Program-made: the position numbers and the translations under genes | In this document: piece by piece, positions 2,528-63,046 of the stretch | Layout of the letters: every line of letters begins with the position of its first letter | Position numbering within the stretch: position 1 is the first letter of the stretch | Origin: Escherichia phage UP19 | Length of the DNA: 64,000 nucleotides | Direction: 5' to 3' (one strand) | Sequence record: OX638288 | The notes under the pieces: generated by a model | Told to the model about the DNA's origin: nothing | The model's database searches: none | The model's input: the letters and a program-made list of their open reading frames with translations, nothing else

Positions 2528-3351
2528 GTATATTTTCCTACATCAATGAGGCCACTGAAACCACAAAAGGTTCTAAGCCCACTCGTTCAGAGCAACAATG
2601 GATAGCTTTAGGTGTTGAATATGCCAAAGCTAAGGCCAAAGGTGTCTCGGCTAAGAAATTCGCTGAAGATAAAGGCATTAAGTATTCTAGCTTTACATCT
2701 GCGATGTCTCGATACTCGAGTCGAATTAAAACTGCTGTACAGGTCGAAAAACTCCAGAAGAAACCTGGCAATAAATTAACCAAAGCTGAACGTCAATTAA
2801 TTTTGGTGAATAGTTTTAGAAAGAGTATTCGTGATAAGATTGCTAACGAAGGAGCCTCTGTAAACAATAAATCAGCTAAATGGTTTACAGAAACATTAAA
2901 GAAAGGAATTCGTGGACACCAGGTATCTAAACCATCTCCCGGTAAGCTTTATGCTTATATCTATGATGCTAAACACAAGGACACATTACCCTACTGGGAC
3001 AAATATCCTTTAATCATTTATCTTGGACTTGGTAAGCATAATCTGATGTACGGGTTGAACTTACACTATATTCCGCCTAAAGCACGCCAGCAATTTCTAG
3101 AAGAATTGCTGAAGCAATACGCGAGTACGCCTACCATTACAAACTCGACTAAATTAAAAATCGATTGGAGTAAGGTAAAAGGATTCGCTGGCGCTGACGT
3201 GATGATTAAAGCTTATATCCCTGGAAATATCAAAGGACCTTTAGTAGAGATAAAACCTTCTGATTGGGCTAATGTCGTAATGATGCCTCTCCAGCAGTTC
3301 ATGTCTAAAGGTAAGCGTTACTCAGCTCAGACAGTATGGAAGAACGCATAA
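2515..3351 (+). CDS. 2: DNA end protector protein gp2
   Basis: 278 aa; position between 4 and 3 and size match T4 gp2 (about 274 aa); start may be the second ATG at 2524. Confidence 0.75.
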
Positions 3352-3436: not shown

Positions 3437-4027
3437 ATGAACGGTTTATTTAACCAAACTAACACTACCAACTTTATCTTAGAGGTTAGTGACTCAGGAA
3501 TGACGCAGGCATTCAAATTGAACGTACAAGATGTAACACTACCGGGCATCCATATTCCGGTCTCAGACGTCCCAGGATCGACCCAAGGTATAAACCGTGC
3601 TAAACTGCCAGGTTCTACTGTAGAATTCGACCCTTTGATTGTGAACTTTCTTGTAGACCGCGAGTTGAAATCATGGCTGGACGTTTATAAATGGATGCTA
3701 TCATTAAACAACTATGTAACACATGAATCTGAAGCCTGGCATCCTAAAGGTCAGCCTGAGGCTATCACCCTCCACATTCTTGATAACAACAAACAGAAAA
3801 TCGTAATGAGCATTCATTACTACGGTGGTTGGCCATCCGACCTTTCCGAGATTCAGTACTCTTATAAAGAAGATTCCGACCCTGCGATAATCGCTACAGC
3901 AACATTCAACTTCAAATCGTTTGCTGTAGAAATAGATGGTACAATAGTTACAGGTCGTCCACAAATTGATTCGTATGCCGAACAACGTGTGGCTCGTATG
4001 TCTATGCATCCATCTATGAGAAAATAA
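3437..4027 (+). CDS. 3: tail completion / sheath stabilizer gp3
   Basis: 196 aa; synteny between 2 and 1; stop overlaps gene 1 start. Confidence 0.7.
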   Translation: MNGLFNQTNTTNFILEVSDSGMTQAFKLNVQDVTLPGIHIPVSDVPGSTQGINRAKLPGSTVEFDPLIVNFLVDRELKSWLDVYKWMLSLNNYVTHESEAWHPKGQPEAITLHILDNNKQKIVMSIHYYGGWPSDLSEIQYSYKEDSDPAIIATATFNFKSFAVEIDGTIVTGRPQIDSYAEQRVARMSMHPSMRK

Positions 4028-4780
4028 TGAAACTAATATCAATTGTAGGAATCAAACGTAGCGGTAAGGATACCGTTGCTAACTATGTAATTGAGAATAT
4101 GGATTCCGTAAAATTCCAACTCGCCGGTCCTATTAAAAAGTATCTGGCTGAAGCTTATGAATACATATCTGATGACCCTGTATTCGACCGTAGCTATATG
4201 CCTAAACTTGATTTTAACTGTTTTGAAGGTATCGGTTATGACCGTGAAGAAATCATTCCTTTAAAACCATATGATGTTATTGATATTTTTGAAAATGCTA
4301 TTGTTAAGCTGAATAATATCCTTCCTATTCCCGGAATTGATGTTCGTACCGCATATCATTATGGTCTTACCCCGGTCCAATATCTGTCTGAAGAAACAAA
4401 AGACCAGCTATTTGAAGTAATAAATAAAAATAACAATTGGTCAGTACGTCGTCTCATGCAGACCCTTGGGACTGATATTATTGTTAACCAATTTGATAAG
4501 ATGTATTGGGTTAAGTTGTTCGCTTTAGACTATTTTGATAAAATATACTCTGATGCGAAATACTATGTCGTACCTGATGTTCGTCAAACACATGAAATTG
4601 ATTCGCTCAGAGCGATGGGTGCTACGATTATTCATGTAGTTCGCGCTGAAACCGGTCAAGTACAAGACTCGCACATCACTGAAGCGGGTCTACCAATTTT
4701 ACCTGGTGACGTTGTTGTTGAAAATAACGGCACTCTTTCTGAACTATACACTACTATTGATAAATTATTAGGAAATAAAA

Positions 4781-4788
<8 letters not shown>
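4027..4788 (+). CDS. 1: deoxynucleoside monophosphate kinase gp1
   Basis: 253 aa; P-loop VGIKRSGKDT; ...WSVRRLMQTLGTDIIVNQFDKMYWVKLFALDY... like T4 gp1. Confidence 0.9.
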
Positions 4789-13604: not shown

Positions 13605-13647
13605 AAACTTGTGTTACTATTACCTTACACAAACATGAGGAGAACAT

Positions 13648-13887
13648 ATGTGGTATTACTCTCCATTGTCTGATAAGTCTGATGAGCCGGTACGAATTAC
13701 TCGTGCCAAGTTTAAAAAGATTTATGGTTTTGCCTATAAGAAGTCTGATTATGGTGTTCGTTTTGAAGATGCTCACTGTATCAATGACCCTTATACAGAA
13801 GAAATCTCTAATGAGATAATTCCTATCATTAAGAATAATTCTGATGATATGTGGGAATTGCATAACGATTACGTTGCTGAAATTTAA
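13648..13887 (+). CDS. hypothetical protein
   Basis: SD gaggag before ATG; 79 aa. Confidence 0.5.
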   Translation: MWYYSPLSDKSDEPVRITRAKFKKIYGFAYKKSDYGVRFEDAHCINDPYTEEISNEIIPIIKNNSDDMWELHNDYVAEI

Positions 13888-13908
13888 GTTTACTCTGAGG
13901 AAAATATT

Positions 13909-14868
13909 ATGATGCTAGTTATTGGTTCTCGTGCACTGCACCATGCAGGTCTGATTGAAAGTAAGTATATAGAAAATTCTGATTGGGATTTCATTGCCGA
14001 CCAAGGCTCGTGGAATCAATTTAAAGCCCGGATGTTCGGTGCTCACGTTCCTGTGGATAATCCAGATGTCCAGGCTTTTAAATGCATGTACAATGGTAAA
14101 GAAACCTATTTTGAAGCTTATATCGTTCGTGCTCTGACTAACGTACGAGAAATTACCGGTGAGCTTCAAGACGAAGATTTCACTTCAAGCTATCGTCTCC
14201 TGAAATATGCTGAAACCCATATTCAAAAGGACCGTCTTACTGGTTTCTATTGGGCAACCCCTGATATCTGTCTGGCTATCAAAATGAGCCATCGTTATTT
14301 GAAGAACAACCCGTTCTTTTTGAAGACGATGTCCCACATCAAATATCTTCGTAATAAAGGTGTAACCTTGAATGAAGAGCTCCAAGAAATCATGTTGCAA
14401 CGTCAGAAAGAAACGTTGAGCTATTCTCATCCTAAATTGGATGTAAACAAATCATCATTCTTTAATGATACCATTTATACGCTAGACCATGACTCTATCC
14501 ACGAAGCTGTGGCATTGGCTGGACGCCCTGCATATACCTTTTATATGAAGGAAGGTTCTGAAGTCATGACCTCACGTGAGAAGTTTGAAGCTTTGCCTGA
14601 AGCTATTAAACTGGCTGGCGTATATGAAGAAACTTGTGTGTTGGCCCTAGAACGTTCACAGGTTCCTAACAACTTTAATATTTCACCGTCATTAAGTTTC
14701 TATATGGCTCTTGAGAAAGTGTGTACCTCAATCACTTCAGGCTGGTTCCGTGAGTATGCCTGGGAAAACTACCAAGCTGTAGTGAATATGTATAAGACCC
14801 TAGGTGAAAATGACTACATCAAGCGGTTCCAAGATAACCATCATTTAATTCGTCCTTTCGAAAAATAA
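13909..14868 (+). CDS. hypothetical protein (319 aa), function unknown
   Basis: Long ORF with SD gaggaaaatatt ATG; no confident family assignment by eye. Confidence 0.6.
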   Translation: MMLVIGSRALHHAGLIESKYIENSDWDFIADQGSWNQFKARMFGAHVPVDNPDVQAFKCMYNGKETYFEAYIVRALTNVREITGELQDEDFTSSYRLLKYAETHIQKDRLTGFYWATPDICLAIKMSHRYLKNNPFFLKTMSHIKYLRNKGVTLNEELQEIMLQRQKETLSYSHPKLDVNKSSFFNDTIYTLDHDSIHEAVALAGRPAYTFYMKEGSEVMTSREKFEALPEAIKLAGVYEETCVLALERSQVPNNFNISPSLSFYMALEKVCTSITSGWFREYAWENYQAVVNMYKTLGENDYIKRFQDNHHLIRPFEK

Positions 14869-25921: not shown

Positions 25922-26374
25922 ATGATTATCAATTCAAACTCTTGGCACGTTAAATTACACGACCGTTTTTATGACCGTCATTCTCGACCACACTCTTTGT
26001 GTGCTTATTTCTGGAAAATGGTTTGGGCTTGTTTTGCTTGTGCTGTTGTTGCAGGTAGTACGCTTTTTGGATTAACTGTTGCAGGAGCTGGTGTATTAGA
26101 GCATTTCTTTGTATTAAGTACTCCTGTTCTGTTGAGTCTAGGGTTTGTTTTAGGGTTGATTGCAATAGCTCTTATTATTGCTCTATCCATTGGTTTGGCA
26201 TTAGGTGCGATGAATTTACACGCGTGGTATGATGCACGTAGAGAAGAAAAGGAATGGCAACGTATTCAAGCTGAGCGTGAAGGCCGAGAAACTAAAGAAA
26301 ATATCGTCGTCCAATACATTAAAGCTCGTAAATCTAAGATGTGTCCTGTAATTCACTTCGAGAACAAAGAATGA
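25922..26374 (+). CDS. membrane protein
   Basis: 150 aa; two to three TM helices. Confidence 0.5.
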   Translation: MIINSNSWHVKLHDRFYDRHSRPHSLCAYFWKMVWACFACAVVAGSTLFGLTVAGAGVLEHFFVLSTPVLLSLGFVLGLIAIALIIALSIGLALGAMNLHAWYDARREEKEWQRIQAEREGRETKENIVVQYIKARKSKMCPVIHFENKE

Positions 26375-27381
26375 GAACAGTTATGAAAGGCTACTTCGGT
26401 AGCCATCTTTATGGAACAAGTACTCCGGAATCTGATGTCGATTTTAAAGAAATCTTTGTTCCACATCCGCGTGATATTCTGTTAGGTACGGCAATGAATC
26501 ATACCAACCTGAACACGAATAACACTGCTTCCAAAAACACTAAAGATGATGTTGACCATGAGCTTTACAGCCTGAAATATTTCTTTAAACTGGCTGCTGA
26601 AGGCGAAACCGTTGCTCTGGATATGCTCCACACTCCGCCTGAAATGGTGGTTAAATCCGATTTACCTGATGTATGGAAATTTATCCAAGATAACCGTTCG
26701 CGTTTCTATACAACTAACATGAAAGCCTATTTAGGGTACGTTCGTAAGCAAGCTTCTAAATATGGTGTTAAGGGTTCTCGTCTGGCTGCTCTGCGTGGTG
26801 TACTGGCTATCGTTAACCAGATTCCTGAACAGTGGGTTGATTATCAAGAAGATGGTTCTACTAAGCAACGACGTACTAAGGTAGAAGATATTAAGCACCG
26901 GCTCCCTGAAAACGAGTTCTGTGAATGGGTATTTCATAACCACGAGAAAACAGGTCCTCAAACGTTCTATACTGTCCTCGGACGTAAGTACCAAACTACT
27001 CTGTCATTGGTCGAGCTTAAGCAATCTCTGAATAAACTTGATGCAGAATATGGCGAACGTGCTCGTAAGGCTGAAGCTAATGAAGGTATTGACTGGAAAG
27101 CTCTGAGCCATGCTTATCGTGCTGGATATCAGTTGAAGGAAATCTATATGACCGGTGACCTTCAATATCCTTTACGAACAGCACCATTTATCCTTGAAAT
27201 CAAACAGGGGCTACATGCTTTTAAAGATGTACAGGCTGAGCTCGAAGCTATAGTTGATGAAGTCGAAACCAATGCCATCTGGGCAGCTAAGAACGGTATG
27301 CCTGATAAGGTAGATATGAAGTTCTGGGACAAGTTCGTTGAGCAGGTTTACCTAGAAAACCATAACTCGTATTATAAATGA
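26371..27381 (+). CDS. Pol-beta-superfamily nucleotidyltransferase-like protein
   Basis: ATG 26371 (ATGA coupling); YFGSHLYGTSTPESDVDF fits hG[GS]-x10-DxD minimal NTase motif. Confidence 0.55.
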   Translation: MRTVMKGYFGSHLYGTSTPESDVDFKEIFVPHPRDILLGTAMNHTNLNTNNTASKNTKDDVDHELYSLKYFFKLAAEGETVALDMLHTPPEMVVKSDLPDVWKFIQDNRSRFYTTNMKAYLGYVRKQASKYGVKGSRLAALRGVLAIVNQIPEQWVDYQEDGSTKQRRTKVEDIKHRLPENEFCEWVFHNHEKTGPQTFYTVLGRKYQTTLSLVELKQSLNKLDAEYGERARKAEANEGIDWKALSHAYRAGYQLKEIYMTGDLQYPLRTAPFILEIKQGLHAFKDVQAELEAIVDEVETNAIWAAKNGMPDKVDMKFWDKFVEQVYLENHNSYYK

Positions 27382-27777: not shown

Positions 27778-27800
27778 TCTACTGAGTGAAGGAGAATAAA

Positions 27801-28781
27801 ATGTTAACTATCAAAATCAACAAAGGTATCTATCGCGGTAATGAAATCTCTGGTACGTTCATGAGTTCAGGTAAAACCTGGTTCCCAAATAAAATTCATG
27901 AATCTGAAGCTCACCTCGGTGATGGCAAGGTATTCGTGCAGATTGATGGTGTTGAACGTGGTGTATGGGTGTTCAAATGTGACGTTGAAATGGAAGGCGC
28001 TGAAGCTCCTGCAATGGTTACTGAATCCGCTGAAGAAATGAAACATCGTATCAACAAACGTTTTAAAGTAATGAACATGATGACTAACGGAATCATCGAT
28101 GGTAAAATTCGTTCCCTTATCATCTCTGGTGCCGCAGGTATTGGTAAAACTTATTCTTTGGATAAAGCATTACAGAATGCCCACGAAAATGAAACTATCG
28201 AATATAAATCAATCAACGGAAAGATTAGTGGAATCGGTCTTTACGAGCAGCTTTGGAATAACCGCGGCCCTAATAGTGTTCTTCTTATTGATGATGTTGA
28301 TGTATTCTCTGACATGGATATTCTGAACCTTCTGAAAGCCGCATTGGATACCGGTGAGAAACGTAAGGTGTGCTGGAGCACTTCAAGTTCTTATCTCGAT
28401 GATAAAAATATCGATAAAGAATTCGAATACGAAGGCACCATCGTGTTCATCACCAACGTTGATATTGACCGTGAATTAGAGCGTGGAACTAAACTTGCTC
28501 CGCACCTCCAGGCTTTAGTATCTCGTTCAGTTTACTTAGACCTCGGAGTTCACTCTAACGAAGAGATTATGGTTCGTGTTGAAGACGTTATCCTGTCCAC
28601 TGATATGATGCAAAATCGAGGTCTGACCGATGCTGAGACTTATCAAGCACTGGCATGGATGAAGGCTAATGTATCTCGTCTTCGTAACGTATCATTACGT
28701 ACAGCTCTTTATCTGGCGGACTTCATTGCCACCGATAAAAATGACTGGAGCGAAATCGCTGAAGTTACACTTCTGAAATAA
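27801..28781 (+). CDS. AAA-type P-loop ATPase
   Basis: ATG 27801; Walker A ISGAAGIGKTYS; Walker B VLLIDDVD. Confidence 0.65.
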   Translation: MLTIKINKGIYRGNEISGTFMSSGKTWFPNKIHESEAHLGDGKVFVQIDGVERGVWVFKCDVEMEGAEAPAMVTESAEEMKHRINKRFKVMNMMTNGIIDGKIRSLIISGAAGIGKTYSLDKALQNAHENETIEYKSINGKISGIGLYEQLWNNRGPNSVLLIDDVDVFSDMDILNLLKAALDTGEKRKVCWSTSSSYLDDKNIDKEFEYEGTIVFITNVDIDRELERGTKLAPHLQALVSRSVYLDLGVHSNEEIMVRVEDVILSTDMMQNRGLTDAETYQALAWMKANVSRLRNVSLRTALYLADFIATDKNDWSEIAEVTLLK

Positions 28782-30708: not shown

Positions 30709-30924
30709 ATGGAAATCTTAGGTTTTATTCTCCTTTACTTTGTGCTAGGATTTATGACGACCTTTATCATTCATAAATCAGGTGATTGGAATCCAATCGA
30801 AATTGAATCAAGCTATGATGCAGTATTCATTACACTAGTATGGCCCCTACTTTGGGTTGTTTTGGTCATTATGATGGTGTTTTGGCCTATTGCTAAATTC
30901 TATGAAAAATTATTTGGACTTTAA
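30709..30924 (+). CDS. small membrane protein
   Basis: 71 aa; two TM helices. Confidence 0.5.
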   Translation: MEILGFILLYFVLGFMTTFIIHKSGDWNPIEIESSYDAVFITLVWPLLWVVLVIMMVFWPIAKFYEKLFGL

Positions 30925-30925
30925 T

Positions 30926-31807
30926 ATGAACATTAAAACACGTAAAGAATACTCTATATACGACCATGACACGACTCGTCGTATCGCTATCGATCGGCTA
31001 GCCGACTTTGGCTATATTCGTAATGGTAATTATACTTATGGTGTAGGACGTAAAGGAACTTATATCGGTTCTTTGAACGATTATTGCCGTTGCCCAGCCC
31101 ACCTGTTTGGTGCAACATTGCGGGCTAATATCAAAGACCTCTTGGCTACCGCAGGACGTATTTCTACGGTTCCTGTTAATATCAAAAGTATTAATTTTAC
31201 GGCTCGTAACCTAGTCATTAATATTCTGGCTGACGGTATTCAAGTTCGTTTCCGTCCTACCTCAAAAGGTAATAAGGCCCTTCGTGAAGCATTCGAAACC
31301 TTATTCAGAGAAGCAATGACTCGTATTAAGGCCGTAGAATCATATAAAGTTACAACCGATGAATATGCTGATTGTTCTGGACGGGCTGATGCGGTGTATT
31401 TTAATGTTAAACTAACTCGTGAATATCTTTTGTCTTATGCCCCTTATCAATCCCAACAAAAGGACCCACAAATGGAACGTCGTATATCTATCGCTACCTC
31501 TACAGTATCATGTGACAGTGTAGGCCAGTATGCAGCCTATGACAAATTCAAAACCACTGCTGTGCCTAGTCCATTCAATTCCGAACCATATCATTGGAAA
31601 ATTAAACCTGATAATTCTTTGGTTGTTACTAACCCTACGATGAAACCTATTGAGACCTATTATGCAGATAGCATTCAGGAATCAATCCACCGTTTAAATG
31701 GTCAGATTGAAGATGAGAAAAAGAGCATTCAAGACGTATTGACCCGCATCAAGAATATGGAAAACCAGCGTGACAAGCTCAGCGCGGCACTATTAGCTCT
31801 AAAATAG
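30926..31807 (+). CDS. hypothetical protein
   Basis: ATG 30926; 293 aa; C-terminal coiled coil. Confidence 0.55.
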   Translation: MNIKTRKEYSIYDHDTTRRIAIDRLADFGYIRNGNYTYGVGRKGTYIGSLNDYCRCPAHLFGATLRANIKDLLATAGRISTVPVNIKSINFTARNLVINILADGIQVRFRPTSKGNKALREAFETLFREAMTRIKAVESYKVTTDEYADCSGRADAVYFNVKLTREYLLSYAPYQSQQKDPQMERRISIATSTVSCDSVGQYAAYDKFKTTAVPSPFNSEPYHWKIKPDNSLVVTNPTMKPIETYYADSIQESIHRLNGQIEDEKKSIQDVLTRIKNMENQRDKLSAALLALK

Positions 31808-47682: not shown

Positions 47683-47700
47683 GGACTTCGGTCCCTTTTT
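47683..47700 (+). terminator. rho-independent terminator (UUCG) followed by ggagTATAAT
   Basis: gggac-ttcg-gtccc, T5, then ggagtataat; same module shape after gene 45. Confidence 0.65.
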
Positions 47701-47758
47701 GGAGTATAATGATTCATCAACAAACAAAAGACAATCACTCGTCTATAAAGGAAATGAA

Positions 47759-50470
47759 ATGCAAGAATTCTATTTGACAGTCGAACAAATCGGTGATAAT
47801 ATTCTCGAACGTTACATCGATAAAAATGGTAACGAACGTAGTCGTGAAGTTCCTTACAAGCCTACAATGTTTATGCACGCTAACCCAGAGCAAGCCGTAA
47901 AATATATTGACATCTACGGTAAGGGTTGTGTTAAGAAAGAATTCGATTCAATGCGCGATGCTTCTCAGTGGATGAAGCGCATGGACGATATGGGTCTCGA
48001 AGCCCTTGGTATGGACGACTATAAATTAGCCTATTTGTCTGATACCTATCGTAAAGAAATCAAGTATGATTCTTCCAAGATTCGTATTGCAAACTTCGAC
48101 ATCGAGGTAACATCCCCTGATGGATTCCCTGAACCTGCCCAGGCTAAACATCCTATCGATGCCATTACTCACTACGACTCGATTGATGATAAATTCTATG
48201 TATTTGACCTTTTAGTTTCACCTTATGGTACGGTCGAAGAGTGGTCGATTAAAATCGCTGAGAAACTCCAAGACGAAGGTGGCGACGAAGTTCCACAAGA
48301 AATCATTGACAAAATCGTTTATCTTCCGTTTAATTCTGAAGAAGAAATGATGCTTGAGTATCTGAATTTCTGGCAACAGAAAACTCCTGTGATTTTGACT
48401 GGATGGAACGTTGAATCATTTGACGTGCCATACGTTTATAACCGTCTGAAAAATCTGTTTGGTGAGAACACTGCTAAGCGATTAAGCCCACATCGTAAGA
48501 CTCGTGTTAAAGTTATCGAGAATATGTACGGTGTTCGCGAAATTATTACACTGTTCGGTATCTCTGTTCTGGATTATATCGACCTTTATAAAAAATTCAG
48601 CTTTACTAACCAGCCTTCTTATTCTCTGGATTATGTTTCTGAATATGAATTGAAAGTAGGTAAGTTGAAATATGATGGTCCTATCTCCAAGTTACGTGAG
48701 ACGAACCACCAACGATATATTTCCTATAACATTATCGACGTATATCGTGTTGTGCAGATTGATATGAAACGCCAGTTCATTCTTCTTAGTCTGGACATGG
48801 GTTACTATGCCAAGATGCAGATTCAGTCGGTGTTCAGTCCAATTAAGACTTGGGACGCTATTATCTTTAATAGCCTTAAAGAACAGGGTAAAGTTATTCC
48901 TCAGGCCAAATCGCATGCGGTTCAACCTTATCCAGGTGCTTTCGTTAAGGAACCTATTCCTAACGCGTACAAATATGTAATGAGTTTCGACCTTACATCT
49001 CTGTACCCGAGTATCATTCGACAAGTGAATATAAGCCCAGAGACCATCGCAGGGACATTCGCCAACGCACCGATACATGAATATATTGCCGGAACTGCTC
49101 CGCGTCCTAGCGACACCTACAGTTGCTCTCCTAACGGCATGATGTACTATAAAGACCGTGATGGTGTGATTCCTACAGAAATCACGAAGGTGTTCTTACA
49201 GCGTAAAGAACATAAAGGTTATATGCTTGCAGCTCAACGTAATGGTGAGTTAATTAAAGAAGCATTAGAAAATCCTAATCTGTCTGTTGATAGTCCACTG
49301 GATATCGATTATCGTTTCGACTTCTCTGACGAAATCAAAGCTCAGATTAAAAAATTGTCAGCATCTTCTTTAAAAGAAATGTTGTTCAAAGCCGAACGTA
49401 CTGAAGTCGCAGGTATGACTGCTCAGATTAACCGTAAGTTGCTTATCAACTCCCTTTATGGTGCACTTGGTAACGTATGGTTCCGTTACTATGACCTCAG
49501 GAACGCAACTGCAATCACATTGTTTGGTCAAATGGCCCTCCAATGGATTGAACGTAAGGTTAACGAATATCTGAATGGCGTGTGCAAGACTGAAAACCAG
49601 AAGTTCGTGCTCTATGGTGATACTGACTCCATTTATGTTAAGGCTGACGCAATCATCAATAAAGTAGGCGAAGACAAATTCCGTGATACTAACCACTGGG
49701 TTGACTTCTTAGATAAATTTGCACGTGAACGTATGGAACCGGCTATTGATGCAGGCTTCCGTGAGATGTGCGAATACATGAACAACAAACAGCACTTGAT
49801 GTTCATGGACCGAGAAGCTATCGCTGGTCCTCCGCTTGGTTCTAAAGGTCTTGGTGGATTCTGGACAGGCAAGAAACGTTATGCACTGAACGTTTGGGAC
49901 ATGGAAGGTACTCGTTATGCCGAACCACACTTGAAAATCATGGGTCTCGAAACTCAGAAATCAAGTACGCCTAAAGCGGTTCAGAAAGCACTGAAAGAAT
50001 GTATCCGTCGTATGCTTCAAGAAGGCGAGGCTTCTTTGCAAGAATATTTCAAACAGTTTAATAAGGAATTTAACGAATTAGACTATGTAAGCATTGCTGC
50101 AGTATCCAGTGCTAACAACATCGAGAAATATAATGAAGGCGGATTCCCTGGTTCTAAATGCCCGTACCACATCAAAGGTTGCTTAGCTTACATGCGTGCT
50201 TCTGCTGGTGATTTGACTATGCCTCGTATCGTTGATGGTGAAAAGGTATATGTACTGCCACTTAAAGAAGGCAACCCGTTCGGTGAAGCTTGTATGGCGT
50301 GGCCGTCAGGTATTGAACTTCCGATTCAGATTCGTGACCAAGTCCTCCGTTGGATGGACTACAACGTACTGTTCCAAAAGACCTTTATCAAACCTCTAAC
50401 CGGTTTTACTGAGTCTGCTAAAATCGACTACGAGAAAAAAGCAACATTATTTGACATGTTTGACTTTTAA
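47759..50470 (+). CDS. 43: DNA polymerase gp43 (family B)
   Basis: 903 aa MQEFYLTVEQIGDNILERYIDKNG...; exo motifs FDIE, YNIIDV; polymerase motifs SLYPSI, YGDTDS. Confidence 0.97.
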   Translation: MQEFYLTVEQIGDNILERYIDKNGNERSREVPYKPTMFMHANPEQAVKYIDIYGKGCVKKEFDSMRDASQWMKRMDDMGLEALGMDDYKLAYLSDTYRKEIKYDSSKIRIANFDIEVTSPDGFPEPAQAKHPIDAITHYDSIDDKFYVFDLLVSPYGTVEEWSIKIAEKLQDEGGDEVPQEIIDKIVYLPFNSEEEMMLEYLNFWQQKTPVILTGWNVESFDVPYVYNRLKNLFGENTAKRLSPHRKTRVKVIENMYGVREIITLFGISVLDYIDLYKKFSFTNQPSYSLDYVSEYELKVGKLKYDGPISKLRETNHQRYISYNIIDVYRVVQIDMKRQFILLSLDMGYYAKMQIQSVFSPIKTWDAIIFNSLKEQGKVIPQAKSHAVQPYPGAFVKEPIPNAYKYVMSFDLTSLYPSIIRQVNISPETIAGTFANAPIHEYIAGTAPRPSDTYSCSPNGMMYYKDRDGVIPTEITKVFLQRKEHKGYMLAAQRNGELIKEALENPNLSVDSPLDIDYRFDFSDEIKAQIKKLSASSLKEMLFKAERTEVAGMTAQINRKLLINSLYGALGNVWFRYYDLRNATAITLFGQMALQWIERKVNEYLNGVCKTENQKFVLYGDTDSIYVKADAIINKVGEDKFRDTNHWVDFLDKFARERMEPAIDAGFREMCEYMNNKQHLMFMDREAIAGPPLGSKGLGGFWTGKKRYALNVWDMEGTRYAEPHLKIMGLETQKSSTPKAVQKALKECIRRMLQEGEASLQEYFKQFNKEFNELDYVSIAAVSSANNIEKYNEGGFPGSKCPYHIKGCLAYMRASAGDLTMPRIVDGEKVYVLPLKEGNPFGEACMAWPSGIELPIQIRDQVLRWMDYNVLFQKTFIKPLTGFTESAKIDYEKKATLFDMFDF

Positions 50471-50472
50471 GT

Positions 50473-50515
50473 GTTTACATACCACATGGAACGTGGTAGT
50501 ATCCTTCCTATCAAC
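50473..50515 (+). promoter_or_regulatory. early promoter / stem-loop cassette (variant core)
   Basis: gtttacataccacatggaacgtggtagtatccttcctatcaactacatgagg. Confidence 0.55.
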
Positions 50516-50532
50516 TACATGAGGAAATTATA

Positions 50533-50769
50533 ATGGAAGCTTTAATCGTTAGTGCTGGTGTTTTAGGATTCGGTTCTCTGGTTATTATGTTCATTGGTTA
50601 CTTTTTACCATGGATTCTGGCCCTTCTGCGAGGCACTCGTAGCAATGTTGGAATCTTCTTCCTTAATCTCCTGTTAGGGTGGACGATGATTGGTTGGGTA
50701 GTGGCTTTAATCTGGGCTATCGTCGCTGAACGTAAATCAAACGCACAAATCATTATCGTTAAACAATGA
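50533..50769 (+). CDS. imm: superinfection immunity protein Imm-like
   Basis: 78 aa, two TM helices, FFLNLLLGWTMIGWVVALIWAIV motif; after gene 43 as in T4. Confidence 0.7.
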   Translation: MEALIVSAGVLGFGSLVIMFIGYFLPWILALLRGTRSNVGIFFLNLLLGWTMIGWVVALIWAIVAERKSNAQIIIVKQ

Positions 50770-50903
50770 AGATAATTATTTTATTTCTTATAATGGCTGC
50801 CTTTACCGTTTATTGGGCAGTGGCAATTCCTCCAATGATTCCAACATTAATCATGGGATGGATTATTCTTATAGCACAAATTAAGTATAACTGTTTTAAT
50901 TGA
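50766..50903 (+). CDS. small membrane peptide (45 aa; imm.1-like position)
   Basis: ATGA-coupled to imm; hydrophobic. Confidence 0.4.
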   Translation: MKIIILFLIMAAFTVYWAVAIPPMIPTLIMGWIILIAQIKYNCFN

Positions 50904-50910
50904 GGATATT

Positions 50911-51411
50911 ATGAAAAAGTTAATTATCGCAATGAGTATGCTCCTATCAGGTTGCGCAGTCCAATACGGTGATGCAGTTTCTGCTGATGAAGTTGGTAAA
51001 GCTCGTATCGCAGCTGAACAGAAACAATTCGACGGCGAAATGAAATTCCGTGCCGGTTCTGGACTTGTGTACACCCGAGCTAATAATCAATGTGGTAATA
51101 ACTGTGCAAAATATGCTCAAGGGGAAATCGAATTCCAACGTGAACAAGAGTCTAAGCGTGAAGCGGTACTAGCCAAACACCAGGCAGAAATGAAGCGCCA
51201 AGATGATTTGTACAAAAAGCAGAAACTGTATGCCATGTGTGTAAACCATATCAATCTACAGATTTCTGTCCACGAGGCTCGTTATTACGAAATGCTCGAA
51301 ACCGAGAGCTTCGATAAGGCTCGTGATTATAAGAAACAAATCAACAAGCTTAAGACCAAAGTGCCTGCTGCAGTAGAACAGTGCATGGAATACGGTAAAG
51401 ATAAGATTTAA
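50911..51411 (+). CDS. lipoprotein
   Basis: Signal peptide with lipobox LLSGC; 166 aa. Confidence 0.6.
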   Translation: MKKLIIAMSMLLSGCAVQYGDAVSADEVGKARIAAEQKQFDGEMKFRAGSGLVYTRANNQCGNNCAKYAQGEIEFQREQESKREAVLAKHQAEMKRQDDLYKKQKLYAMCVNHINLQISVHEARYYEMLETESFDKARDYKKQINKLKTKVPAAVEQCMEYGKDKI

Positions 51412-51471
51412 GCAATAGAAATTTATTAAAAATAGTGTATAATGTACCTACATTCACTTGAGGAACAGATA

Positions 51472-53145
51472 ATGAAAAAGGTTGTTATTTTAGGCGCAGG
51501 TCTTGGCTCACGGTTGTATCCAATTACTAACGAAATCCCAAAGGTATTGGTTAACTACAAACAACATACGGTATTAAAACATTTGTATGATTTGTATAGT
51601 AACCAATCAGATGAAATTATTCTGGTTATTCACAGCAAATTTAACGACCTCGTTAAAGGCTATATTAAATCCATTAACATGATTACTGGTGATAAGCCTA
51701 AATTCACTATTCGTAACGTTGATGTTGCTAATGGTTCAGCTCATGCTATCGATTGCATTGCCGAAGATATCATTGGCCATAATGTCCTGTTTAACTGGTG
51801 TGACATCATTCCTATCGGTCATAAAGTTGAATGGGGTAACGACTATTGTTATACCTATGGAACTGACTGTCGCTTTACATTTGAAGAACCGTACTTACGT
51901 GAAATTGGTACCGGTGGCGGTGTAGTTGGTTTGTATCAGGTAGCCAATTGGACAGGTTTCGACCGTTCTAATTATGGCGAAGACCTTGCTGATAACCTGG
52001 ATTCAATGGTCTATTTGACTGAACGTAAACTGGATTTTGTAGTTGATGTCGGTGACAAATTGAAACTTGCCAAGGCCCATGAAGATTCTGAAATTAACCG
52101 TGAATTTAATAAATTAGAGTTCACCGAGAATCTGGCTATTAAAGTACCAACTAACGAATTAGGTAAAGAAATTCAATCTAAAGAAATCAATTGGTATAAT
52201 TCTATTGATTCTGAATTCGTTCCTAGCATTGTAGACTTTTCTCCAGGCGAATTCATTAAAATGGAACGTATCTTTGGTCGTACCATGGCAGATGCCTACC
52301 GGTTTATGTCCAAAGAAACTAAAGTCCTCATGGTTTATAAGGTCATTAGTGCATTACGTTCATTCGGTGGAACTATCGATAATCCGTCCGATGAGCAATG
52401 GTATTCCGATGTTAAGAAAGAAGTGTTGGACAAGGTCCTTATTCGTAATGCTTCTATTGCCGGATTGATTGAAGGCTTTGCTCCACAGGGCATTACCCAT
52501 GTTAACGATTTCAAAGTAGGCGACCCCGAAAAACTTCTCCGCCATGCACTAGAAATTCTGTCTGAACATAAAGAACCGTACCAACTTATTCATGGCGACC
52601 CGCACTACAGTAATATTATGCTGTCGGACGAAGGTGATATTAAAATCATCGACCCACGTGGTTATTTCGGTAATAGTTCTAAAGGCCCTGCGATTTATGA
52701 TGAAGCTAAGGTGCTTTATTCTATCGATGGCTATGACAAATTTAACTCAGACCCTCTATGGGGTGGATTAACTCGTAACGGAACTCGTGTATTCGTTGAT
52801 ATCGAAAAGGTTATGCCTTTAGACGATATTCCTATGTGCACATTTAAGCACAAGCTCTGGATTGCTGTTATTTGGATGGCGCTGGCAGGTTACTTTAAGA
52901 ATAACCCTCTGAAAGCTCTGGGTGCTTATTATAACGGTTTGTATCAACTGAGTGTGCTGCTGAAGCGGCATCCTCGTAAGCGTAAGCTTATTACTGGTGA
53001 ATTTGTCGATGAAGTTCGTGACCCTATCACGGCTCAAATTATTACTCGTTGTCCTGATAAGTGGGTTTTGCTTGACCAGGAAACTGGTGTAAAATATAAA
53101 CCTACAGGTTCTACTGAGCTCCACAAACAATGGAAGAAAATTTAA
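51472..53145 (+). CDS. bifunctional sugar-1-phosphate nucleotidyltransferase / APH-like anomeric sugar kinase
   Basis: N-terminus ILGAGLGSRLYPIT (G-x-G-x-R NDP-sugar pyrophosphorylase motif); C-terminus HGDPHYSNIML...IIDPRG (Brenner-type kinase motif). Confidence 0.7.
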   Translation: MKKVVILGAGLGSRLYPITNEIPKVLVNYKQHTVLKHLYDLYSNQSDEIILVIHSKFNDLVKGYIKSINMITGDKPKFTIRNVDVANGSAHAIDCIAEDIIGHNVLFNWCDIIPIGHKVEWGNDYCYTYGTDCRFTFEEPYLREIGTGGGVVGLYQVANWTGFDRSNYGEDLADNLDSMVYLTERKLDFVVDVGDKLKLAKAHEDSEINREFNKLEFTENLAIKVPTNELGKEIQSKEINWYNSIDSEFVPSIVDFSPGEFIKMERIFGRTMADAYRFMSKETKVLMVYKVISALRSFGGTIDNPSDEQWYSDVKKEVLDKVLIRNASIAGLIEGFAPQGITHVNDFKVGDPEKLLRHALEILSEHKEPYQLIHGDPHYSNIMLSDEGDIKIIDPRGYFGNSSKGPAIYDEAKVLYSIDGYDKFNSDPLWGGLTRNGTRVFVDIEKVMPLDDIPMCTFKHKLWIAVIWMALAGYFKNNPLKALGAYYNGLYQLSVLLKRHPRKRKLITGEFVDEVRDPITAQIITRCPDKWVLLDQETGVKYKPTGSTELHKQWKKI

Positions 53146-53528
53146 TGTCGCATCGAGTAGAAAATAAGCCACATTTATGTTTTGATATCGATAACACAAT
53201 CACGATTTGGAACCATGACCGTGATTATGAGAACTTTAAACCGGACACCGAAATGGTGTCCATGATTAATAAGCTTTATGATGAAGGGTACGAGATTACA
53301 TTATTCACTGCCCGTGGCATGACTTCATGTGGCCCAGGTCGAATCTTGGTTGAAGTAGTTCCTGCATTGGTTAAGAACCTTGAAAAGATTGGATTGAAAT
53401 ATCATAATCTGCTTACGCATAAGCCGAGTTATACTTTTATCATCGATGACCGAGCAATCCGTCCTGACCACTTTAAAGAAATGGTTCGTGAAGGAACTCT
53501 TGATAGTTATAAGGCCTATCATCCATGA
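53145..53528 (+). CDS. HAD-superfamily phosphatase
   Basis: CFDIDNTIT (DxDxT motif I); 127 aa; ATG overlaps upstream stop. Confidence 0.65.
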   Translation: MSHRVENKPHLCFDIDNTITIWNHDRDYENFKPDTEMVSMINKLYDEGYEITLFTARGMTSCGPGRILVEVVPALVKNLEKIGLKYHNLLTHKPSYTFIIDDRAIRPDHFKEMVREGTLDSYKAYHP

Positions 53529-54061
53529 ATCCAAAAATCATTGTTATAGACGGCCCGGATAATTCCGGGAAGTCCACTTTAATTAAAAATCTGTTATCCA
53601 ATAAGAAATACCGCCTTATTGATTTTCCTAAAAAGATTAATGGCAAGTGTATTTCATTAGGAACTGATAACGATAAGGCTTTAGTTGAAACTCTGTATAA
53701 GTTTTTAGACCCTAATTTCGTTTATATCCTTGACCGTGGTTATCCAAGTAATATTGTTTACTCAGGATTCCTTCGTGGTGAAATGGACCCTTATGTAGAA
53801 CTGGAAGATTGGAAAGGGTTTAAATCCGAATTTAACGTTATCGAGGTTATTTTAACTCGCAATCCATTAGACGAAGACTTCGAAGACGACCTTATTAAAT
53901 TAACCAAAGATGAGTTCAACCTAACTATCCGGCAATACGAAACATGTTTTGAAAACGTGTTTAAAATCTTAAATCATGACGGCCATAATAATTTGCTTAA
54001 TGTTGATATGGTAGAATTAAAACGTCTGAACGAATATATTGAAAATAAGGTGAATAAATGA
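53525..54061 (+). CDS. P-loop nucleotide kinase (thymidylate/dNMP-kinase-like)
   Basis: VIDGPDNSGKST Walker A typical of dNMP/thymidylate kinases; 178 aa. Confidence 0.6.
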   Translation: MNPKIIVIDGPDNSGKSTLIKNLLSNKKYRLIDFPKKINGKCISLGTDNDKALVETLYKFLDPNFVYILDRGYPSNIVYSGFLRGEMDPYVELEDWKGFKSEFNVIEVILTRNPLDEDFEDDLIKLTKDEFNLTIRQYETCFENVFKILNHDGHNNLLNVDMVELKRLNEYIENKVNK

Positions 54062-54756
54062 AACACATTACCGCTGTTAGTTTTGAAAATGCATTTAAAC
54101 AAATGAACGAAGAAATCCTGGAAGCTCCACAGTTTGCAGTTGATTCTCGTATCGGACGTTGTTATGAAATTGGTTCTGCTTCGGTAGAAGTACTGGATGC
54201 AAGCACCTATAAATTCACCGACCCACGTATCAATCGTATTAGTTATGAATATGCCGAATCCTTTTGGAAATTTATGATTTCTGGTGGTACTGACGCTGCC
54301 GAAGCATTTAAGGAATACCCTAATGTTGCTAAGTTCATTGATAAGCCGAAAAGTGATGTATTGCCTGCAAACTTCAACACTTTCTATGGACCTCGAATTG
54401 TGGCCCAACTCCCAGCCCTACTTAAAGAGCTTAAAGAAAAGGCTAACTCGCGAAGAGTTGTGTTCCAGATTCTCCAAGAACAAGACCAAGCCCTCCTTGA
54501 TTCTGACGAATCCTTAGAATATCCTTGCACCGATTCGGTAACGTATTATATTCGTGACGGACGTTTGTATGCACACACCCATATGCGTTCACAAAACTGC
54601 GCCGTTGTTATGCAGCTGGATTTCTATCTGCAGGGTAAACTGATGGCATTTATTGCTGAACAGTGTGGTGTCGGTTTAGGTACATATTCCCACACCATGG
54701 TAAGTGCACACGTGTTTGAACGTGATTTTGACTACGTCCGAGGTTTCCTGAAATGA
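54058..54756 (+). CDS. 42: pyrimidine hydroxymethylase, thymidylate-synthase fold (gp42-like dCMP hydroxymethylase)
   Basis: 232 aa; ...SRRVVFQI...YPCTDSVTYYIRDGRLYAHTHMRSQN... with catalytic Cys in PCT context like T4 gp42; downstream of imm as in T4. Confidence 0.75.
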   Translation: MKHITAVSFENAFKQMNEEILEAPQFAVDSRIGRCYEIGSASVEVLDASTYKFTDPRINRISYEYAESFWKFMISGGTDAAEAFKEYPNVAKFIDKPKSDVLPANFNTFYGPRIVAQLPALLKELKEKANSRRVVFQILQEQDQALLDSDESLEYPCTDSVTYYIRDGRLYAHTHMRSQNCAVVMQLDFYLQGKLMAFIAEQCGVGLGTYSHTMVSAHVFERDFDYVRGFLK

Positions 54757-55646
54757 GTTTGTTTATCGTTCCTATTTTCAGTATGCGTAGTTACGAAACA
54801 GGTGAATATGCCGTCCTTAAGGACGGCAATTTTCAACTCCATTTAAATCGTGCTCGTCCAGGTGATTATCTGGCTTATCCTAGAAATTCGAGCGATATCA
54901 AAGAATGCATTGAATTATTCCCAGAACTGAATTTCGTACCACTTTGGTATAAAGAAAATGCTTATGAAACCCGTAAACATTTCTGGTCTGAAAATGAGTT
55001 TGTAGTCGATTCACTAATCGAATACTATGATTGCTCAGGACTGGTGACCGATATCACCGGTTATGATGGTGCTCATACTGTACAATTCAACTTTAATATC
55101 ACAATGGACCCTGAAGTTCCTCGTTATTATATCGACGAGTTCATTGATATTGATGTGGCTTCAGTTGAACGTTCACTTTATACTACAGTCTTGAATCAAT
55201 GCCAGAAAGACGTCCTGGTGTCACGAGGTGCATCCTCTGATAAGATTTTTGTAGACCAAAAGGTAATTAATCCTGCAGTAATTGAGCGTTACTCTGAAGG
55301 TCTAGCGCCTATTAAAATTGATGGTATTTTCCATCCATTCCGTATTTCGGATAAGTGTTATCAATTCGAAAGAGTTGTAGACCAAGCTGCCGCTGAAGGT
55401 GCTCGTCTTTATATCACCGACCCTAATGATTCATTTAAGCGCGAAGACTATCGTCCTGATGTAGAGATTATTAAATTCAAACCGAGTAAGGTTGAATATT
55501 ATCAAATTCTGAAATCAAGACCACATATCATTTATCATGAGAACCCAGGTTTAGTATTCCATCCTGGTCTGGCTGAATTCATTTATTTTGGTGCCAATAT
55601 TCATTCTGAATACGAAATGCCACGTTATGAGGACGTAGTATGCTAG
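54753..55646 (+). CDS. hypothetical protein, candidate DNA sugar-transferase (positional equivalent of T4 beta-gt)
   Basis: 297 aa; directly downstream of hydroxymethylase; no family recognised by eye. Confidence 0.55.
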   Translation: MSLFIVPIFSMRSYETGEYAVLKDGNFQLHLNRARPGDYLAYPRNSSDIKECIELFPELNFVPLWYKENAYETRKHFWSENEFVVDSLIEYYDCSGLVTDITGYDGAHTVQFNFNITMDPEVPRYYIDEFIDIDVASVERSLYTTVLNQCQKDVLVSRGASSDKIFVDQKVINPAVIERYSEGLAPIKIDGIFHPFRISDKCYQFERVVDQAAAEGARLYITDPNDSFKREDYRPDVEIIKFKPSKVEYYQILKSRPHIIYHENPGLVFHPGLAEFIYFGANIHSEYEMPRYEDVVC

Positions 55647-55771
55647 GTCCTCTATTGCTTTTTATAGGTTTGTTATTATTCTCTTTCGGAGGCTTGCTAT
55701 TATTAGTGTGGCTCGAGAAACGAGAAGTTCGGAAGATAGTCGATAAGGCTATCAACCGAGGAATTAAGTAA
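55640..55771 (+). CDS. small membrane peptide (43 aa)
   Basis: ATG overlapping upstream stop; Leu-rich hydrophobic. Confidence 0.35.
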   Translation: MLGPLLLFIGLLLFSFGGLLLLVWLEKREVRKIVDKAINRGIK

Positions 55772-55848
55772 TGCTGTAGCTGTGAAGTGATATAATTACC
55801 CTATCTTAAAACGTGAGAAAAATATAATGATGCCTATGGAAAAATATA

Positions 55849-57021
55849 ATGTCTGATTTAAAATCCCGTTTGATTAAAGCTTCTACTTCTAAAATGACTG
55901 CCGACCTGACCAAATCTAAATTGTTTAATGGTCGTGACGAAGTTCCTACTCGTATTCCTATGCTTAATATTGCATTGGGTGGTGCGTTGAATGCAGGCTT
56001 ACAATCAGGTTTGACAATCTTTGCTGCACCGTCTAAACACTTTAAAACGTTGTTTGGATTAACTATGGTTGCGGCATATATGAAGAAATATCCAGACGCA
56101 ATTTGCTTGTTCTATGACTCTGAGTTCGGTGCTTCAGAATCTTATTTCCGTTCAATGGGTGTTGACCTGGAACGTGTGGTTCATACGCCAATCCAGTCAG
56201 TCGAACAACTGAAGGTTGACATGACCAACCAATTAGAAGAAATTACTCGTGGTGAAAAGGTTATTATCTTTATCGACTCCATCGGTAACACTGCTTCTAA
56301 GAAAGAAACCGAAGATGCTTTGAACGAGAAAGTTGTAGGTGATATGACTCGTGCTAAGTCTCTGAAATCTCTGTTCCGTATCGTAACACCTTATCTGACT
56401 ATCAAGGATATTCCTTGCGTAGCAATTAACCATACGGCTATGGAAATTGGTGGAATGTATCCTAAAGAGATTATGGGTGGTGGTACTGGTATTCTGTACT
56501 CTGCTTCTACCGTATTCTTTATCTCTAAACGTCAGGTTAAAGATGGTACCGAGCTCACTGGTTATGACTTCACCCTGAAGGCCGAAAAATCTCGTACTGT
56601 TAAAGAGAAATCAACGTTCCCAATTACTGTGAACTTTGAAGGTGGTATCGACCCGTTTAGTGGTCTGCTCGAAATGGCTACTGATATTGGCTTTGTCGTG
56701 AAACCTAAAGCTGGTTGGTATAATCGTGCATTCCTTGACGAAACCACGGGTGAAATGGTTCAAGAAGAAAAATCATGGCGTGCTAAAGCTACCGATTGTG
56801 TCGAGTTCTGGGGACCACTGTTTAAACATGCTCCATTCCGTGAAGCAATCGAGAATAAGTATAAGCTCGGTGCAATTAATTCTATTAAAGAAGTCGATGA
56901 TGCAGTGAACGACCTTATTAACTCTCGTGTCTCTAAGAACGTTGCAGTTAAATTGAGCGGTGACACTCAAAGCGCTGCTGATATCGAAAACGATTTAGAA
57001 GAGATGGATTTAGATGACTGA
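55849..57021 (+). CDS. uvsX: UvsX recombinase (RecA-like)
   Basis: 390 aa; RecA fold, Walker A SKHFKT; like T4 UvsX. Confidence 0.95.
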   Translation: MSDLKSRLIKASTSKMTADLTKSKLFNGRDEVPTRIPMLNIALGGALNAGLQSGLTIFAAPSKHFKTLFGLTMVAAYMKKYPDAICLFYDSEFGASESYFRSMGVDLERVVHTPIQSVEQLKVDMTNQLEEITRGEKVIIFIDSIGNTASKKETEDALNEKVVGDMTRAKSLKSLFRIVTPYLTIKDIPCVAINHTAMEIGGMYPKEIMGGGTGILYSASTVFFISKRQVKDGTELTGYDFTLKAEKSRTVKEKSTFPITVNFEGGIDPFSGLLEMATDIGFVVKPKAGWYNRAFLDETTGEMVQEEKSWRAKATDCVEFWGPLFKHAPFREAIENKYKLGAINSIKEVDDAVNDLINSRVSKNVAVKLSGDTQSAADIENDLEEMDLDD

Positions 57022-62524: not shown

Positions 62525-63046
62525 ATGGCTCATTTTAATGAATGTTCTCAACTTATTGCCGGTGCCGATAAAGCTGAAGAAGCTTATTTTAATGCTCTGA
62601 TTCACGAAGATAAAGACCCTCTACAGGTTATGCTTGATATGCAGAAATCTTTGCAGGTTCGTTTAGCTAAAGATAAGCCTGAATATAATCGTCATCCTGA
62701 TGATTTGGCCACTGCGGGTGAAGTTGTCGATTGGCTTCGCAACCAGAAAGATTATATTGATGACGAATTCCGTGAACTTCTGACTTCTCTTGGTGGTATG
62801 AGCAATGGTGAAAAAGATGCATCTGCAGTATGGAAGCCTTGGAAAGCTCAACATGCTGAACGTCGTGAAACCCTGATTAACGATTTGTCTCCTGAAGACC
62901 AGCTCGAAATTAAATTCGAAATGATTGATATTCTGCACTTTGTTCTGAATATGTTCCAGGGTCTTGGACTGACCGCTGAAGAAATCTTTAAACTGTATTA
63001 CCTGAAAAATGCCGAGAACTTTGCTCGTCAAGACCGAGGTTATTAA
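62525..63046 (+). CDS. 56: dCTPase/dUTPase gp56 (MazG-like NTP pyrophosphatase)
   Basis: ATG 62525; MAHFNECSQLIAG...DPLQVMLDMQKSLQVRLA...EIFKLYYLKNAENFARQDRGY; like T4 gp56. Confidence 0.95.
   Translation: MAHFNECSQLIAGADKAEEAYFNALIHEDKDPLQVMLDMQKSLQVRLAKDKPEYNRHPDDLATAGEVVDWLRNQKDYIDDEFRELLTSLGGMSNGEKDASAVWKPWKAQHAERRETLINDLSPEDQLEIKFEMIDILHFVLNMFQGLGLTAEEIFKLYYLKNAENFARQDRGY

Follow-up and report, generated by a model that had tools for sequence, protein, structure and literature searches.

Introduction

The closest described relatives of the locus analyzed here are the RB69 gp45-gp53, HY126 Afh and DLP3 gp76-gp82 gene clusters, which belong to a known Straboviridae pathway that replaces cytosine in phage DNA with 5-O-arabinofuranosyl-5-hydroxycytosine. 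We analyzed a 64,000-nucleotide stretch of Escherichia phage UP19 (sequence record OX638288; this whole stretch is called the window), in which five overlapping open reading frames (ORFs) are confirmed at positions 51472-55646 on the + strand, between gp43/imm and uvsX. We find this cluster to be orthologous to those of RB69, HY126 and DLP3, and the locus is very probably the Dhakavirus copy of their pathway.

Clusters of this kind have a considerable history. The 2008 annotation of phage JS98 describes its five genes as 'RB69 orf052c-, 051c-, 045c-, 048c- and 047c-like', Thomas (2018) pointed out the module in RB69 while citing a homologue in the JS98 relative IME08 (PMC6024577), and the module was surveyed across Tevenvirinae in 2021. 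Its chemistry and enzymology were worked out in 2025-2026 (Lee 2026, PMC13326640; Mahler 2025 and He 2026, as cited there), and the 5-hydroxydeoxycytidine (5hodC) pathway has been extended by synteny to Dhakaviruses (Lee et al. 2026, PMC13326640). Thus, the arabinosyl-hydroxycytosine cluster is already known, and an earlier note on this DNA, made from its letters alone, cannot be followed where it presented the locus as a new candidate system. A narrower claim, that the cluster is new to Dhakaviruses, was also rejected since the JS98 annotation and Lee et al. (PMC13326640) already link it to RB69.

Several of the enzymes involved have been studied directly. RB69 gp48 and DLP3 gp80 bind flavin and convert dCMP to 5-hydroxy-dCMP (5hodCMP) with oxygen taken from O2, the RB69 gp48 product shows 18O2 incorporation, and the replacement D169N foretold 5hodC production in nine further homologues (PMC13326640). 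The RB69 gene 1 enzyme converts 5hodCMP to 5hodCDP (PMC13326640). Regarding the sugar, the HY126 results of He et al. (2026), as relayed in PMC13326640, are that the kinase domain of AfhE converts arabinofuranose 5-phosphate to the 1,5-bisphosphate, that AfhF removes the 5-phosphate to give arabinofuranose 1-phosphate (Araf1P), and that the nucleotidyltransferase domain of AfhE converts Araf1P to UDP-arabinofuranose (UDP-Araf). UDP-Araf is the donor of the DLP3 DNA arabinosyltransferases in vitro, and the DNA of Shewanella phage Thanatos is mono-arabinosylated (both PMC13326640). Note that the RB69 gene pairs gp53+gp52 and gp47+gp46 are each single genes split by sequencing errors (PMC13326640, PMC6024577).

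Arabinosylated 5-hydroxycytosine shields phage DNA from restriction enzymes and CRISPR nucleases and is a target of type IV systems, and it is useful to know which therapeutic coliphages carry it.

Results

Identity of the phage and orthology of the cluster

The window derives from a Dhakavirus, a T4-like coliphage. Specifically, the stretch from 51400 to 55800 is 99.5% identical to Escherichia phages EcWhh-1 and IME281 and ~98% identical to JS10, JS98 and CLB_P2, and the five cluster proteins are 100% identical to JS98 gp042-gp038. In order, the genes code for a fusion enzyme, a HAD phosphatase, a P-loop kinase, a ThyA homologue and a 297-aa transferase (Table 1). The earlier note had described five coupled genes following gp43 and imm, and their positions, overlaps, flanks and motifs are all confirmed. 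The neighbors overlap by 16, 4, 4 and 4 nt, so the genes are rightly called coupled, and their translations contain ILGAGLGSRLYPIT, HGDPHYSNIM...IIDPRG, CFDIDNTIT, VIDGPDNSGKST and YPCTD. The assignment of this locus to the arabinosylation pathway is based on orthology, folds, active-site signatures, gene coupling and absences that were computed here, with all enzyme activities carried over from published RB69, DLP3 and HY126 experiments. The proposal that this is a hypermodification module with a phage-made nucleotide sugar, independent of UDP-glucose, is borne out.

The ThyA homologue and the nature of the modified base

The ThyA homologue has a Pfam Thymidylat_synt domain (E=3.6e-13), and its strongest relatives are PDB entries 9iqu/9iqc/9ir2 (E=2e-125, 80% identity) and RB69 gp48 (80% identity). 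We assign the 9iq entries to phage HY126 because 9iqz, which adjoins them, carries the title 'phage HY126 glycosyltransferase'. Similarity to the CMP hydroxymethylase MilA is at about 5e-13, and T4 gp42 is matched only at E=1.5e-4 (PDB 1b49), with 24.5% identity across 159 aa.

The active site was compared in a MAFFT alignment with E. coli ThyA (which provides the numbering), the phage's own td, T4 gp42 and RB69 gp48. The ThyA homologue keeps the catalytic Cys146 and has L143E, D169N, N177D (the dCMP specificity position), W80A, G173V and Y209F, a pattern that is identical to that of RB69 gp48. In contrast, T4 gp42 keeps D169, W80, G173 and Y209, and thus differs from the ThyA homologue at all four of these positions. 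D169N is diagnostic of the flavin-dependent 5hodCMP synthases. This residue pattern, including D169N, is why 5-hydroxycytosine is the expected base, and as judged from sequence the protein is a 5hodCMP synthase, a ThyA-superfamily hydroxylase rather than a hydroxymethylase. Of the gp42-like hydroxymethylase that had been proposed here, the catalytic cysteine in its PCT motif stands and the hydroxymethylase activity gives way to hydroxylation, given D169N and the closeness to gp48 over T4 gp42. The accompanying prediction of an arabinose-decorated hydroxymethyl-pyrimidine agrees with the sugar measured in relatives, with the base now predicted to be 5-hydroxycytosine carrying an ether-linked sugar.

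A gp42-type hydroxymethylase would lead to arabinosyl-5-hydroxymethylcytosine (arabinosyl-hmC), which was the published RB69 model of 2018 (PMC6024577), and in this alternative the nucleotide sugar would be made by free-sugar salvage, with release by the HAD enzyme followed by an anomeric kinase and a pyrophosphorylase. The catalytic cysteine and the acidic residue at L143 are indeed features that the ThyA homologue has in common with hydroxymethylases. We nevertheless consider this alternative very unlikely as nuclear magnetic resonance and mass spectrometry of RB69 and DLP3 DNA place the sugar in ether linkage to C5 via 5-hydroxycytosine, RB69 gp48 makes 5hodCMP (both PMC13326640), a later paper calls the 2018 hmC assignment erroneous, and D169N, W80A, G173V and Y209F are shared with gp48 against T4 gp42.

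The fusion enzyme and the HAD phosphatase

Both halves of the fusion enzyme are recognized by Pfam (NTP_transferase, 33.8 bits with a cutoff of 21.2; APH, 25.6 bits with a cutoff of 23.2). Foldseek searches with an AlphaFold2 model (predicted local distance difference test score, pLDDT, 91.2) match the N-terminal domain to RmlA, MurU (4y7t, E=2e-7), LicC (1jyl) and HddC, and the C-terminal domain to APH(2'') (3tdv/3ham). The NCBIfam MurU model gives 2.8e-5, which is far below its cutoff, and a profile built from 42 fusion sequences finds the sugar-1-phosphate nucleotidyltransferases HddC (1.7e-12) and LicC (5e-11) in the PDB. The motifs of the kinase domain are invariant throughout the family alignment. 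Identity is 41-44% to RB69 gp53+gp52, 47% to a Serratia phage 92A1 protein and 43% to Thanatos TH1_060, and RB69 gp52:53 has been published with the same matching PDB entries (PMC13326640). The fusion is thus predicted to be an AfhE-like bifunctional enzyme with an N-terminal sugar-1-phosphate nucleotidyltransferase and a C-terminal APH-fold sugar kinase. By analogy with HY126 AfhE, its predicted activities are those of an arabinose-5-phosphate 1-kinase and a UDP-arabinofuranose pyrophosphorylase.

The HAD protein contains the DxD motif CFDIDNT, and it is 62% identical to PDB 9iqw_A (E=5e-54) and 61% identical to RB69 gp51, with a further match to PDB 1xpj (E=4.5e-12). No Pfam match was obtained, and its identification comes from 9iqw together with the NCBIfam model TIGR01689 for a capsule biosynthesis phosphatase (1.3e-14, below cutoff). 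We predict an AfhF-like enzyme that would strip the 5-phosphate from arabinofuranose 1,5-bisphosphate.

These assignments bear on the free-sugar half of the arabinosyl-hmC alternative. The earlier note had compared the fusion with AmgK/MurU salvage enzymes and had the HAD enzyme supply the free sugar. Its NTP_transferase and APH domains hold up with both Pfam and Foldseek, as do the HAD motif and family membership, and it is the salvage route and free-sugar supply that are probably wrong, given the bisphosphate route that HY126 biochemistry favors (He et al., as relayed in PMC13326640). The order of reactions in the note does agree with Table 1 of the Lee et al. paper (PMC13326640), where the entries 'dephosphorylates Araf5p to Ara' and 'phosphorylates Ara to Araf1p' are retained.

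Two of the best sequence matches have names, TIGR01689 'capsule biosynthesis phosphatase' and LicC CTP:phosphocholine cytidylyltransferase, that would suit sugar-nucleotide genes serving a target other than DNA, such as host capsule or lipopolysaccharide or a choline/ethanolamine-type substrate, with the ThyA homologue as the only nucleotide-acting enzyme. This explanation is extremely improbable. As noted above the TIGR01689 match lies below its cutoff, and the LicC alignment (E=1.7e-4) is confined to residues at the N-terminus of the fusion. The five genes form an overlapping series, and across 352 phage records they are linked without exception to the 5hodCMP synthase in the gp43-uvsX slot. 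A Thanatos TH1_060 knockout is non-viable (PMC12838424), and UDP-Araf serves DNA arabinosyltransferases of DLP3 in vitro.

Finally, three metagenomic or bacterial proteins of 920-946 aa that match the fusion (P0184, P0198 and P0214) combine four domains within a single chain, namely HAD, SIS (of the arabinose-5-phosphate, A5P, isomerase type), NTP_transferase and APH. This arrangement independently links the four activities of the sugar branch, and it points to a UDP-arabinofuranose-type pathway in bacteria as a possible origin of the phage genes.

The 297-aa transferase

The 297-aa ORF, encoded directly beside the synthase, is 66-70% identical to RB69 gp47+gp46 (arabinosyltransferase 1). Sequence searches of Pfam, NCBIfam and the PDB gave no match, and a PHROG of unknown function is its sole sequence-family match. 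Since sequence searches gave no fold, the fold was taken from structure prediction, which confidently predicts a GT-B fold for this arabinosyltransferase 1, the putative transferase of the first sugar. An ORF of this length had been noticed at the position where a glucosyltransferase would sit, and structure prediction now provides the fold that it lacked. Relatives are found in Mosigviruses (~68% identity), in Serratia phages CHI14 (64%) and 92A1 (45%) and in Acinetobacter phages (~50%).

Absent genes and distribution of the cluster

Genes that might be missing were looked for by tblastn in the window and in the EcWhh-1 genome, which is complete at 170.5 kb. These searches gave no significant match to T4 alpha-gt or beta-gt, in agreement with the earlier note, and none to RB69 gp3 (arabinosyltransferase 2), RB69 gp55 (A5P isomerase), RB69 gp50 (U32-peptidase-like) or RB69 gp49. 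A Pfam scan of ten other large ORFs of the window also detected no glycosyltransferase (GT) domain. In the alpha-gt slot of JS98 and EcWhh-1, 47.1 is followed directly by a-gt.2. We observed that the rIIA.1-gp39 interval, the site of RB69 gp3, contains two small ORFs in EcWhh-1 (13611-14170) and is a 588-bp unannotated gap in JS98 (2437-3024).

Homologues of transferase 1 occur in the 352 phage records mentioned above, with 276 for the isomerase and 212 for transferase 2. These counts indicate that a sizeable subclass of clusters has one transferase and lacks the isomerase. E. coli makes A5P constitutively for the synthesis of 3-deoxy-D-manno-octulosonic acid (Kdo) via KdsD/GutQ. Because the host supplies A5P, we treat the phage isomerase as an accessory feature of the cluster. 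With one transferase detectable, the end product is most likely mono-arabinosylated by analogy with Thanatos, which has one arabinosyltransferase (ara-GT) and a single sugar and provides the strongest precedent for clusters of this one-transferase kind.

The extra kinase and partners in the nucleotide branch

The kinase of the cluster is an addition to gene 1, as had been proposed from its P-loop. It matches phrog_761 'thymidylate kinase' (1.5e-39), it is 38% identical to RB69 gp45, and its family profile, which is small as the homologue search gave 9 proteins, matches YorR (2axp/3kb2, E=6e-6) and weakly the thymidylate kinases through the P-loop. By sequence it is a thymidylate kinase (TMK)/YorR-like P-loop nucleotide kinase and the orthologue of RB69 gp45, in agreement with the label 'nucleotide kinase' used by Lee et al. 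(PMC13326640). Even in Rhizobium phage RL38J1, a TMK-like kinase is kept beside the synthase and transferase 1 (PMC13326640), and this conservation would allow for a nucleotide-level step. Two further partners, gp56 and gene 1, are located elsewhere in the window (Table 1).

A proposed pathway and how well it stands

Taken together, these assignments allow a pathway to be proposed. In the nucleotide branch, gp56 would remove dCTP by converting it to dCMP, the ThyA homologue would hydroxylate dCMP at C5 in a flavin- and O2-dependent, not folate-dependent, reaction, and gene 1 deoxynucleoside monophosphate (dNMP) kinase together with host nucleoside diphosphate kinase would raise 5hodCMP to the triphosphate, which gp43 would put into DNA. 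In the sugar branch, D-arabinose 5-phosphate would come from host KdsD/GutQ, a source that we infer because there is no phage isomerase in the genome. The C-terminal kinase domain of the fusion would phosphorylate A5P at C1 to give the 1,5-bisphosphate, the HAD enzyme would take off the 5-phosphate, and the N-terminal nucleotidyltransferase domain of the fusion would yield UDP-Araf. The GT-B enzyme would then transfer arabinose onto the 5-hydroxyl.

There are several points that weigh against this pathway. No Dhakavirus nucleoside chemistry was found in the accessible literature. The fusion enzyme is only 41-47% identical to the enzymes of characterized phages, so that its sugar specificity is a prediction. 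The isomerase encoded by RB69 (gp55) and DLP3 (gp83) is absent here, which makes a different sugar source possible. The absence of a second transferase is one of sequence similarity only, and a cryptic GT-B enzyme could be missed because even the first transferase goes unrecognized by Pfam. In addition, Lee et al. could not reconstitute the first arabinosylation on 5-hydroxycytosine DNA with single transferases, and according to them it may occur on the mononucleotide (PMC13326640).

One alternative concerns the identity of the sugar, as the same architecture could produce a Dhakavirus sugar that is not D-arabinofuranose or that is drawn from another precursor. The missing gp55 homologue and the divergence of the fusion would both be accommodated by such a sugar, RL38J1, a related phage with a 5hodCMP synthase, uses galactose and glucose (PMC13326640), and the Thanatos authors reported a 'deoxypentose' (PMC12838424). 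Set against this, KdsD/GutQ of E. coli supply A5P and make a phage isomerase dispensable, the HAD enzyme (61-62%) and the transferase (66-70%) are closely similar to proteins of arabinosylating Mosigviruses, and the kinase-domain motifs do not vary within the family. We therefore regard a different sugar or precursor as unlikely, and D-arabinofuranose remains the sugar of the pathway that we favor.

A more specific version of the favored pathway would have five genes, pared down from the larger clusters, use A5P from the host Kdo route (KdsD/GutQ) and add a single arabinose, with the TMK/YorR-like kinase acting on 5hodCMP or on a glycosylated mononucleotide. The latter role may be considered because the kinase is invariably found together with the synthase and transferase 1. 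If the kinase did act on such mononucleotides then the first sugar would precede replication and not be added on DNA. As a whole we hold this version to be possible but doubtful.

Layout of the locus and other features of the window

We took ATG 51472 as the start of the fusion gene because it has a GAGG 8 nt upstream and is also the start in the JS98 annotation, whereas the alternative start from mechanical ORF calling, ATG 51442, falls within a TATAAT (51438-51443). That TATAAT, directly upstream of 51472, is the single noteworthy one from 50400 to 56000; over this interval a scan for promoters and terminators found 16 against 17.8 expected from shuffling, which is not above chance.

Table 1. 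Coordinates in the window of the five cluster genes, their flanks and related genes.
Feature	Position	Strand	Length	Remark
Fusion enzyme ORF	51472-53145	+	557 aa	
HAD phosphatase ORF	53130-53528	+	132 aa	
TMK/YorR-like kinase ORF	53525-54061	+	178 aa	
ThyA homologue ORF	54058-54756	+	232 aa	
Transferase ORF	54753-55646	+	297 aa	
gp43 DNA polymerase	47699-50470	+		Upstream flank
imm	50533-50769	+		Pfam Imm_superinfect
uvsX	55849-57021	+		Downstream flank
Candidate ORF	55640-55771	+	43 aa	Strongly hydrophobic; start overlaps transferase stop by 7 nt
gp56 dCTPase/dUTPase	62525-63046	+		68% identity to T4 gp56
gene 1 dNMP kinase	4027-4788	+		99.6% identity to EcWhh-1 '1 gene product'

The candidate ORF that follows the transferase is annotated in EcWhh-1 (EcWhh1_137) and unannotated in JS98, it has no match in Pfam or PHROG, and its end is where the earlier note had ended the locus. 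On the upstream side, imm and the cluster are separated by a 45-aa ORF and then a 166-aa ORF (50911-51411), both on the + strand. The latter carries a lipoprotein signal (MKKLIIAMSMLLSGC...), matches phrog_1754 (unknown function) with no match in Pfam or NCBIfam, and fills the slot of the RB69 arabinose-5-phosphate isomerase. Because imm is adjacent, this protein might conceivably act in superinfection exclusion or at the cell surface.

Misleading names of the cluster genes are being passed on in public records (JS98 NC_010105, RB69 NC_004928, PHROG 1238). The HAD phosphatase is a 'phosphoheptose isomerase' in RefSeq and PHROGs, the synthase is listed as 'thymidylate synthase' or 'dCMP hydroxymethylase', the kinase as 'thymidylate kinase', and the fusion and the transferase as 'hypothetical'.

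Elsewhere in the window, an RlaP-like nucleotidyltransferase (26341-27381, +; Pfam PF10127, 2.4e-11) occupies the T4 nrdC.11 position and forms a conserved pair with a gene at the nrdC.10 position (27786-28781, +), the product of which has weak AAA/STAND NTPase matches. Large conserved phage proteins are also encoded at 13909-14868 (+) and 30890-31807 (+), with DUF7277+DUF7275 and DUF7235 domains, respectively, throughout their lengths.

Discussion

The value of this window lies in correct annotation, as no new kind of system is added by it. The questions that it raises are specific to Dhakaviruses, namely whether the precursor comes from the host, how many sugars are added and what the extra kinase does.

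Comparison with RB69 is the most direct. Its cluster lies in the same gp43-uvsX slot with orthologues of all five genes, it shares gp56 and gene 1, and both phages lack alpha-gt and beta-gt. The two clusters differ in order, which is fusion-HAD-kinase-synthase-transferase here and, in the same direction, isomerase-gp54-fusion-HAD-gp50-gp49-synthase-transferase-kinase in RB69. RB69 also has features with no counterpart here, these being the A5P isomerase gp55, the U32-peptidase-like gp50, gp49 and arabinosyltransferase 2 (gp3). Furthermore, RB69 DNA contains mono- and di-arabinosyl forms whereas a single sugar is expected here.

HY126 is similarly close, with the synthase and the HAD enzyme matching 9iqu and 9iqw at the identities given above, and the logic of a bifunctional AfhE with a phosphatase AfhF, as relayed in PMC13326640, would apply to Dhakaviruses as well. 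The difference is that HY126 encodes a GT4-type transferase of 366 aa (9iqz), of the type represented by RB69 gp3, for which there is no counterpart here. Thanatos resembles this locus in having a single ara-GT beside a ThyA homologue and the fusion TH1_060 (PMC12838424). It differs in its distant host and lineage, and its authors read the sugar as a deoxypentose and assigned other activities to the proteins (PMC12838424).

The glucosyl-hmC system of T4 proceeds by hydroxymethylation and uses host UDP-glucose, whereas the pathway proposed here would proceed by hydroxylation, as indicated by D169N, and would use phage-made UDP-Araf. The Dhakavirus cluster has neither the Asp at D169 nor the alpha-gt and/or beta-gt that a T4-type system requires. 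Finally, the sugar branch has likenesses to bacterial AmgK/MurU and GmhB/HddC enzymes, as the N-terminal domain of the fusion has a MurU/HddC fold and its kinase belongs, as AmgK does, to the APH family. In its predicted course, from bisphosphate formation through specific dephosphorylation to nucleotidylation, the sugar branch follows the logic of the heptose HldA/GmhB/HddC route. Unlike in AmgK/MurU and GmhB/HddC, the kinase and the nucleotidyltransferase are here fused, and the substrate would be a pentose 5-phosphate, not a free amino sugar or a heptose.

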